NCBI RefSeq assembly: GCF_003018255.1
Contig: NZ_CP027440.1
DNA length: 64,000 bases
From: Escherichia coli
GTDB taxonomy: Bacteria; Pseudomonadota; Gammaproteobacteria; Enterobacterales; Enterobacteriaceae
Direction: 5' to 3' (one strand)
This document shows positions 39,607 to 42,172 of this stretch, in pieces. The position numbers and the translations under genes are program-made. Each line of letters begins with the position of its first letter. Within the stretch, counting starts at the first letter, position 1. The notes below the pieces were generated by a model. The model was not told the origin of the DNA. It ran no database searches and saw only the letters and a program-made list of their open reading frames with translations.

Positions 39607-41331
39607 ATGCCGCGTGGCCTGGAATTACTGATTGCACAAACCATTTTGCAAGGTTTCGACGCTCAGTATGGTCGATTCCTCGAAGTGACTTCCGGGGCGC
39701 AGCAGCGTTTCGAGCAAGCCGACTGGCATGCTGTCCAGCAGGCGATGAAAAACCGTATTCATCTTTACGATCATCACGTGGGTCTGGTCGTGGAGCAACT
39801 GCGCTGCATTACCAACGGCCAAAGCACGGACGCGGCATTTTTACTGCGCGTCAAAGAGCATTACACGCGGCTGTTGCCGGATTACCCGCGCTTCGAGATT
39901 GCGGAGAGCTTTTTCAACTCCGTGTACTGTCGGTTATTTGACCACCGCTCGCTTACTCCCGAGCGGCTTTTTATCTTTAGCTCCCAGCCAGAGCGCCGTT
40001 TTCGTACCATTCCCCGCCCGCTGGCGAAAGACTTTCACCCCGATCACGGCTGGGAATCTCTGCTGATGCGCGTTATCAGCGATCTGCCGCTGCGTCTGCG
40101 TTGGCAGAATAAAAGCCGTGACATTCATTACATCGTTCGCCATCTGACGGAAACGCTGGGGACAGACAACCTCGCGGAAAGTCATTTACAGGTGGCGAAC
40201 GAACTGTTTTACCGCAATAAAGCCGCCTGGCTGGTAGGCAATCTGATCACGCCTTCCGGCACATTGCCATTTTTGCTGCCGATCCACCAGACGGACGACG
40301 GCGAGTTATTTATTGATACCTGCCTGACGACCACCGCCGAAGCGAGCATTGTTTTTGGCTTTGCGCGTTCTTATTTTATGGTTTATGCACCGCTGCCCGC
40401 AGCGCTGGTCGAGTGGCTACGGGAAATTCTGCCAGGTAAAACCACCGCTGAATTGTATATGGCTATCGGCTGCCAGAAGCACGCCAAAACCGAAAGCTAC
40501 CGCGAATATCTCGTTTATCTACAGGGCTGTAATGAGCAGTTCATTGAAGCGCCGGGTATTCGTGGCATGGTGATGCTGGTGTTTACGCTGCCGGGCTTTG
40601 ATCGGGTATTCAAAGTCATCAAAGACAAGTTCGCGCCGCAGAAAGAGATGTCTGCCGCTCACGTTCGTGCCTGCTATCAACTGGTGAAAGAGCACGATCG
40701 CGTGGGCCGAATGGCGGACACCCAGGAGTTTGAAAACTTTGTGCTGGAGAAGCGGCATATTTCCCCGGCATTAATGGCATTACTGCTCCAGGAAGCAGCG
40801 GAAAAAATCACCGATCTCGGCGAACAAATTGTGATTCGCCATCTTTATATTGAGCGGCGGATGGTGCCGCTCAATATCTGGCTGGAACAAGTGGAAGGTC
40901 AGCAGTTGCGCGATGCCATTGAAGAATACGGTAACGCTATTCGCCAGCTTGCCGCCGCTAATATTTTCCCTGGCGACATGCTGTTTAAAAACTTCGGTGT
41001 CACCCGTCACGGGCGCGTGGTGTTTTATGATTACGACGAAATTTGCTACATGACGGAAGTGAACTTCCGCGACATCCCGCCGCCGCGCTACCCGGAGGAC
41101 GAACTTGCCAGCGAACCGTGGTACAGCGTCTCGCCGGGCGATGTTTTCCCGGAAGAGTTCCGTCACTGGTTATGTGCCGACCCGCGTATTGGTCCGCTAT
41201 TTGAAGAGATGCACGCCGACTTGTTCCGCGCTGATTACTGGCGCGCACTACAAAACCGCATACGTGAAGGGCATGTGGAAGATGTTTATGCGTATCGGCG
41301 CAAGCAGCGGTTTAGCGTTCGATTCGTATAA
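39607..41331 (+). CDS. aceK: Isocitrate dehydrogenase kinase/phosphatase
   Basis: 574-aa ORF recognised as AceK; C-terminus ends ...RFSVRFV. Confidence 0.93.
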
Positions 41332-41347
41332 ATCAGAGGCGAAAAAG

Positions 41348-42172
41348 TCAGCGTATTCCACCGTACGCCAGCGTCACTTCCTTCGCCGCTTTAATCACCA
41401 TCGCGCCAAACTCGGTCACGCGGTCATCGGTAATACGTGAAATCGGTCCGGAAATTGAAATTGCGGCAAACGGTTCGCGGTGCTCATCGAAAATACACGC
41501 TGCAAGGCAACGCAGCCCCAGCGCATGTTCCTCATCGTCAAATGAATAACCCCGTTTGCGCGTTTGGGCGAGATCTTCTTTTAAATGCACAGGAGACACC
41601 AGCGTTGCGTGGGTATAGGCATGTAACCCTTTGCGGTGCAGCAGCTTCGTCACCTGTTCTTCGCTCAGTTGGGCCAGAAAGGCTTTACCCGCACCGGAAG
41701 CGTGCATCGGCAATTTACCGCCGATAGGCGCGGACATTCGCATCAGGTGAGTACACTGTACCTGGTCGATAATAATCGCTTCGTGATTGCTTTGATCAAG
41801 CACCGCCATATTGACCGTTTCGCCAGACTCTTCCATTAGATTGCGCAGGATAGGGTGAACAATCGCTAACAAATTACGGCTCTGGAGAAAGCTGCTACCG
41901 ACCATAAAGGCGTGTGCGCCGATTGCCCAGTGACCCAGTTCGCCGACCTGACGGACAAAGCCCTGTTGCTGCATCGTGGTTAGCAGGCGGTGGGTCGTGG
42001 AATTGGGTAACCCGGCTTGCTGTGCCAGTTCCGTGAGTGCCACACTGCCATTGGATTCGGCAATCCACTCCAGTAATTTCAGGCCACGCGTTAAAGACTG
42101 AACCTGTCCAGTCGCTGGTGCGGTGGCAACGGCGGGTTTTCTGCCGCGTTTTGCGGGAATGGGTGCGACCAT
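41348..42172 (-). CDS. iclR: Transcriptional repressor IclR
   Basis: 274-aa product from MVAPIPAKRGRKPAVATAPATGQ; internal start of the 287-aa ORF in the track. Confidence 0.95.
   Translation of the reverse strand: MVAPIPAKRGRKPAVATAPATGQVQSLTRGLKLLEWIAESNGSVALTELAQQAGLPNSTTHRLLTTMQQQGFVRQVGELGHWAIGAHAFMVGSSFLQSRNLLAIVHPILRNLMEESGETVNMAVLDQSNHEAIIIDQVQCTHLMRMSAPIGGKLPMHASGAGKAFLAQLSEEQVTKLLHRKGLHAYTHATLVSPVHLKEDLAQTRKRGYSFDDEEHALGLRCLAACIFDEHREPFAAISISGPISRITDDRVTEFGAMVIKAAKEVTLAYGGIR

Follow-up and report, generated by a model that had tools for sequence, protein, structure and literature searches.

Presence or absence of arpA between aceK and iclR has served as a standard marker of Escherichia coli phylogroups for more than ten years, and arpA is described as a marker of the Clermont quadruplex phylotyping scheme (PMC10525238, citing Clermont et al.). 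In K-12 MG1655 (NC_000913.3), arpA (b4017) lies on the minus strand between aceK and iclR (b4016–b4018), encodes a protein of 728 aa and overlaps the 3' end of aceK by 32 bp; K-12 AceK has 578 aa and ends RFSVRYGEMLF, and the stop codons of aceK and iclR are 2,471 bp apart with arpA within this distance. The first-pass annotation of the present DNA had described K-12 with a large minus-strand arpA between aceK and iclR that overlaps the aceK 3' end, and with a 578-aa AceK ending RFSVRYGEMLF, and NC_000913.3 agrees with it in each respect.

Here, we compared this arrangement with a 64,000-nucleotide stretch of E. coli contig NZ_CP027440.1, referred to as the window. The gene order metA-aceBAK-iclR-metH-yjbB is common to the window and K-12, and the flanks are orthologous, with nucleotide identities of 96.9% for aceK, 97.2% for iclR and 96.7% for metH. 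The sequence and the list of open reading frames (ORFs) bear out the earlier reading that, in the window, aceK and iclR converge with stop codons 16 bp apart and that AceK has 574 aa ending RFSVRFV. The features of the junction are as follows.

39607..41331, plus strand: aceK, isocitrate dehydrogenase kinase/phosphatase, 574 aa ending RFSVRFV (ORF and translation, Pfam, identity to K-12)
40933..40952, plus strand: site of Clermont primer AceK.f, exact match
41328..41341, no strand: empty insertion site of 13–14 bp, ATAAATCAGAGGC(G); ~76% of E. coli genomes have ~2.48 kb carrying arpA/espL4 in its place
41332..41347, no strand: spacer between the convergent stop codons, 16 bp, ATCAGAGGCGAAAAAG, read from the sequence
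41339..41370, minus strand: candidate weak terminator-like hairpin in the last codons of iclR (stem 41370 to 41349) with a T-run in the spacer, tail ACTTTTTCGC (consensus scan)
41348..42172, minus strand: iclR, glyoxylate bypass operon repressor, annotated as 274 aa (ORF, tblastn, RefSeq annotation)

The stop codon of aceK is TAA (41329–41331, from the sequence and ORF list), and residues 1–573 of the product are 99% identical to K-12 AceK. The N-terminal regulatory and C-terminal kinase/phosphatase domains are both present and score far above the curated Pfam cut-offs (AceK_regulatory, PF20423, residues 10–306, E 8e-111; AceK_kinase, PF06315, residues 310–564, E 3e-121), and PDB entries 3lc6/3eps match the protein over its full length. 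The stop codon of iclR lies at 41348–41350 (TCA on the plus strand) and its annotated start at 42172, in an open frame that reaches 42211. IclR is 99% identical to its K-12 counterpart by tblastn, and the gene is annotated as iclR in the RefSeq record NZ_AP045067.1, which is 100% identical.

A search of the window with ArpA (tblastn) gave no match. The reverse complement of the published primer ArpA1.r (TCTCCCCATACCGTACGCTA) occurs in K-12 as TAGCGTACGGTATGGGGAGA, exactly on the aceK/arpA junction, and the window contained no ArpA1.r site with up to 3 mismatches allowed, nor one for the degenerate EzClermont version of the primer. The window thus lacks the 400-bp AceK.f/ArpA1.r amplicon and is arpA-negative. 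This genotype, which characterises phylogroups B2, F and G, matches the window in both locus and polymorphism, with no difference in kind; the window junction is the arpA-negative allele of a known presence/absence polymorphism, and as such is ordinary and of little significance beyond bookkeeping.

The two alleles were widely represented among 5,426 complete E. coli genomes. Megablast of window 40900–41800 covered the query as one place in 1,314 genomes, and in the others the alignment broke at query position ~442, which corresponds to window 41341. An 80-bp junction probe was contiguous in 1,298 genomes (23.9%), and the K-12 segment between the two stop codons, which holds arpA, was present in 4,114 (75.8%). 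Recovery of one and the same junction from 1,298 independent complete genomes, together with RefSeq annotation of two intact genes at an identical junction, rules out that it arose through faulty assembly or sequencing.

With respect to the remaining markers, K-12 yjaA had no blastn match in the window and the yjaA primers were absent. The interval between rrf (the 5S rRNA gene) and yjaB (window 34541–34663) measured 121 bp, compared to 519 bp in K-12, and did not contain yjaA; strain JNE23-011, which is 100% identical, likewise has no annotated yjaA. The primers for chuA, TspE4.C2 and ybgD had no match within the 64-kb window, a result confined to the window since these loci lie outside it. 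The arpA-negative, yjaA-negative pattern is the one expected of phylogroup F or G and not of B2, so that annotation of the window places the source strain in a lineage of F or G type.

We next consider where the two alleles part. Alignment with the K-12 aceK-arpA-iclR region, which had been proposed as a check, gave megablast breakpoints at K-12 8308/10798 and window 41318/41341. The limits of the empty site were set by aligning the junction of the window with those of five arpA-less E. coli, Escherichia albertii and five arpA-positive loci (L001, L087, L088 and L089 at both junctions and L092 at the left junction only). At the left junction, strain THO-008 (arpA-positive) reads CGG TAT GT/G GAG ATG GCT TTT TGA and E. 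albertii reads CGG TTT GT/A TAA, which places the left breakpoint (slash) between the second and third bases of AceK codon 574, at window 41327. The right breakpoint lies just 5' of AAAAAGTCA, at window 41341/41342. From these two breakpoints, 13–14 bp (41328..41340/41341) are replaced by ~2,480 bp.

As homology ends inside AceK codon 574, the later residues of K-12 AceK are encoded by the inserted DNA. The final codons and stop of the 578-aa form come from the insert and read V/G-E-M-A/L-F followed by the stop (...RY-V/G-EM-A/L-F), in place of RFV in the 574-aa form; the F573Y difference just upstream is an ordinary substitution. ArpA, read from the opposite strand, takes its last four codons and stop (...H-T-V/A-R) from antisense aceK sequence. 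This reciprocal exchange of tails produces the 32-bp overlap of aceK and arpA in K-12, and it neatly illustrates how new C-termini and a gene overlap can arise at once when DNA is inserted between convergent genes. The earlier suggestion that the K-12 tail is tied to arpA would have failed if K-12 AceK also ended RFSVRFV with no gene between aceK and iclR; instead, K-12 has RYGEMLF and arpA.

The difference between RFV and RYGEMLF is most likely neutral for AceK function, to judge from the position of the tail beyond the conserved kinase domain and its free variation among Enterobacteriaceae. The Pfam AceK_kinase domain ends at residue 564, leaving the tail outside it, and PDB 4p69 contains a 568-residue AceK chain without the tail. 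A comparison of AceK C-termini, also called for at the outset, was carried out across 80 Enterobacteriaceae species among the matches listed. The sequence past the motif RQRF..R[FY] was variable and total AceK length ranged from 573 to 598 aa, with E. albertii sharing the RFSVRFV end of the window. Three Citrobacter genomes among the matches listed also have an AceK of 574 aa, ending RF(T/A).

The first-pass annotation had left open whether the arpA-less junction is ancestral, with the K-12 tail derived from an insertion, or whether the converse holds. To resolve the direction we used as outgroups the 80 Enterobacteriaceae loci of other species found with the AceK query among the matches listed (L003–L082); in this set the genus Escherichia is represented, besides E. 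coli, by E. albertii, with E. fergusonii and cryptic clades I–V falling outside it. E. albertii (L003) has the same junction as the window, with AceK again of 574 aa ending RFSVRFV (GTGCGGTTTGTATAAATCAGTGGCGAAAAGTTA, compared to GTTCGATTCGTATAAATCAGAGGCGAAAAAGTCA in the window). Its spacer of 15 bp (TAAATCAGTGGCGAAAAGTTA) differs from that of the window (TAAATCAGAGGCGAAAAAGTCA) by two substitutions and a 1-bp deletion, and the species is otherwise diverged only at the level expected of a species, with 92% (aceK) and 88% (iclR) identity to K-12. The two genes were convergent in all 77 other-species loci that hold both, among the matches listed, and tblastn with K-12 ArpA found arpA between them in none of these 77. 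Within E. coli, each of five arpA-less genomes (95.6–100% identity to the window across 901 bp) shares the junction of the window.

The composition of the K-12 insert was also distinct, with a GC content of 31–42% compared to 51–57% in the aceK and iclR flanks. K-12 and three divergent arpA-positive loci (THO-008, L088 and L089) have identical left and right junctions, the 32-bp overlap and a 578-aa AceK, and a fifth arpA-positive locus (UTAK-18, L092) has the left junction in common with them. Divergence within the insert can be considerable: L088 arpA is 92% identical to that of K-12 at the nucleotide level and 88% at the protein level, with flanks 96–98% identical. In FELIX_MS533 (L091 4288–5101, NZ_CP137696.1), an IS1 stands in place of arpA and a 101-bp remnant of the region upstream of arpA is retained, with an AceK of 582 aa that ends RYGGDAANLLI.

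If the ancestor of E. coli already had arpA and the lineage of the window lost it by a precise deletion, the 574-aa AceK would be the derived form. This scenario accords with the reported arpA-positive state of Clade I, which is sister to E. coli sensu stricto, and loss of arpA does happen, as seen in the IS1-mediated deletion above, in a ~613-bp internal deletion and in the disruption of the gene in B strains (PMC5435950). However, such a deletion would have had to restore the E. albertii stop codon and spacer to the exact base, whereas the secondary losses that we observed carry scars; moreover, arpA is missing from the other Enterobacteriaceae loci (77 with both genes among the matches listed) and the composition of the insert is foreign. 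With outgroups, composition and a clean junction of the E. albertii type all failing to support it, we regard the deletion scenario as very improbable. The arpA-positive state of Clade I nevertheless bears on timing, in that a single gain after the split of B2/F/G depends on how the tree is rooted, or else calls for transfer of the insert by homologous recombination through aceK and iclR.

Taken together, the outgroups, the composition of the insert, the common junctions and the scarred losses indicate one insertion at a site that was empty in the ancestor, as opposed to a deletion in the lineage of the window. The first of the two earlier alternatives is thus favoured by the E. albertii junction, the outgroups, the foreign composition and the breakpoint in codon 574, and we consider it highly probable, for the explanation as a whole, that the arpA-free junction is ancestral, that arpA was gained elsewhere and that the K-12 AceK tail was made by the insertion junction. 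The direction of the change and its single origin would follow from these comparisons, and the 574-aa AceK would accordingly represent the ancestral Escherichia form, being neither a truncation nor an annotation error.

The proposed sequence of events is that a single illegitimate insertion, on the branch that gave rise to most other E. coli, would have swapped the 13–14 bp for ~2.48 kb of AT-rich foreign DNA. The inserted DNA would have brought arpA (espL4), an ankyrin-repeat gene of the ShET2/EspL family, together with its upstream region; it would have given AceK its new last codons and stop, and antisense aceK would have given ArpA its last four codons and stop. The ancestral unoccupied junction would have persisted in phylogroups B2, F and G. 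Illegitimate recombination is the mechanism that we infer. When the two ends of the K-12 insert were compared for direct or inverted terminal repeats, only short chance matches emerged and, as there are no terminal repeats, an origin of the insert as a transposon or IS is unsupported. No donor of arpA was found among 18 clusters of close homologues in 5.8 billion proteins; the close ArpA homologues with a source name were all labelled E. coli, and two that were traced sit at the aceK/iclR locus.

K-12 ArpA contains an N-terminal ShET2 domain (Toxin_15, PF07906, residues 121–379, E 1.3e-96) and Ank_2 (E 2e-7), matched no NCBIfam model, and is named espL4, 'ShET2/EspL2 family type III secretion system effector toxin', in RefSeq. 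The gene seems to be frequently hit by disruption. About half of the arpA-positive genomes (~2,100 besides L092) cover just 75% of the K-12 arpA segment owing to a ~613-bp internal deletion. The internally deleted arpA of L092 (1469–3043, NZ_CP157132.1) encodes a 524-aa product, and the homologues include forms of 524 and 545 aa. In strain H9Ecoli (H60, NZ_CP029180.1), arpA is interrupted by the IS5-like element ISKpn26. An IS1 insertion within the arpA amplicon has been described in strain IAI42 (PMC6113867), and in BL21(DE3) transcriptomes no expression whatever of arpA was reported, the gene being disrupted in B strains (PMC5435950).

Other occupants of the same site were observed. A third one in E. 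coli is a 1.5-kb segment of 44% GC that carries an orphan DNA cytosine methyltransferase gene on the plus strand (L090 5423–6974, NZ_CP101866.1); it was present in three genomes from pigeon or poultry (LP5-1, PT62 and MB53). In LP5-1 (L090), AceK ends RYPSQV, and the neighbouring iclR allele has only 86% identity to that of the window. Between genera, aceK/iclR junctions were hypervariable (80 Enterobacteriaceae species, L003–L082, among the matches listed). Buttiauxella, Cedecea, Siccibacter and Shimwellia have aceK and iclR stop codons that overlap by 4 bp. REP elements are inserted at the junction in other genera, and inserts of 0.4–1.7 kb occur in others still. An insert of ~380–460 bp in Klebsiella, Raoultella and Salmonella diarizonae apparently holds a small minus-strand gene, and larger inserts of 0.7–1.7 kb were found in Superficieibacter, Kosakonia and Enterobacter sp. 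BIGb0383.

The first-pass annotation had also stated that no terminator hairpin lies between the two genes. This applies to the 16-bp spacer itself, where it stands; it does not extend to the end of iclR, where a weak hairpin with a T-run overlaps the end of the gene and the spacer. The candidate consists of a 7-pair stem (3 G-C and 2 G-U pairs), an 8-nt loop and the tail ACUUUUUCGC, and it is also part of the minimum-energy fold of the plus strand. The consensus scan yielded 5 sites per 900 bp compared to 0.8 expected, mostly inside coding sequence, and is weak evidence for any one site. Folds of the junction on both strands were not significantly more stable than those of shuffled sequence (z −1.6 and −0.6), no inverted repeats were detected in 41200–41500 at a seed of 6, and no comparable terminator for aceK was found at the junction. 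K-12 also has the iclR hairpin in conserved form; there it is followed by another, stronger hairpin (GGGCAGA..TCTGCCC), which lies inside the inserted DNA and is extra relative to the window.

The tight junction could itself be regulatory, with antisense read-through between aceBAK and iclR in the manner of an excludon, in which case the insertion of arpA would have insulated the two units and control of the glyoxylate shunt would be specific to phylogroup. The sole hairpin with a T-run is weak and oriented for iclR, not for aceK; an intergenic terminator could not be accommodated in Buttiauxella, Cedecea and other genera, given the 4-bp overlap of their stop codons; and aceK-arpA is among the convergent transcript overlaps seen in K-12 RNA-seq (PMC12288877). 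Against these points, expression of aceK is very weak, with transcripts that end prematurely inside the gene (PMC5435950), so that little read-through is to be expected, and the high variability of the junction across genera argues against a conserved regulatory arrangement. We therefore view a regulatory role of the junction as improbable.

AceK takes a different end with each of the E. coli occupants (RFV at the empty site, RYGEMLF with arpA, RYPSQV with the orphan cytosine methyltransferase and RYGGDAANLLI with IS1). A broader proposal, that the aceK/iclR junction is a recurrent landing site whose occupants, in other genera REP elements or small genes, rewrite the AceK C-terminus and whose ancestral terminator-poor state may let the aceBAK and iclR transcripts interfere, appears to us improbable. 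If it were true, the insertion of arpA would have changed regulation of the glyoxylate shunt according to phylogroup. Insertion of arpA into an ancestral empty junction, with a tail change that is probably neutral, is the reading that we retain.

Two further features of the surroundings of the junction may be mentioned. In strain JNE23-011 (L002 16168–16901, corresponding to window ~49067 onward), pepE, which lies downstream of yjbB, is followed by the L-sorbose gene sorE; K-12 presumably has no sor operon downstream of yjbB/pepE. The region between aceA and aceK measures 215 bp in the window compared to 182 bp in K-12, and the REP/BIME array that it contains (window 39392–39606) has an extra unit of ~39 bp and is missing 7 bp relative to K-12.
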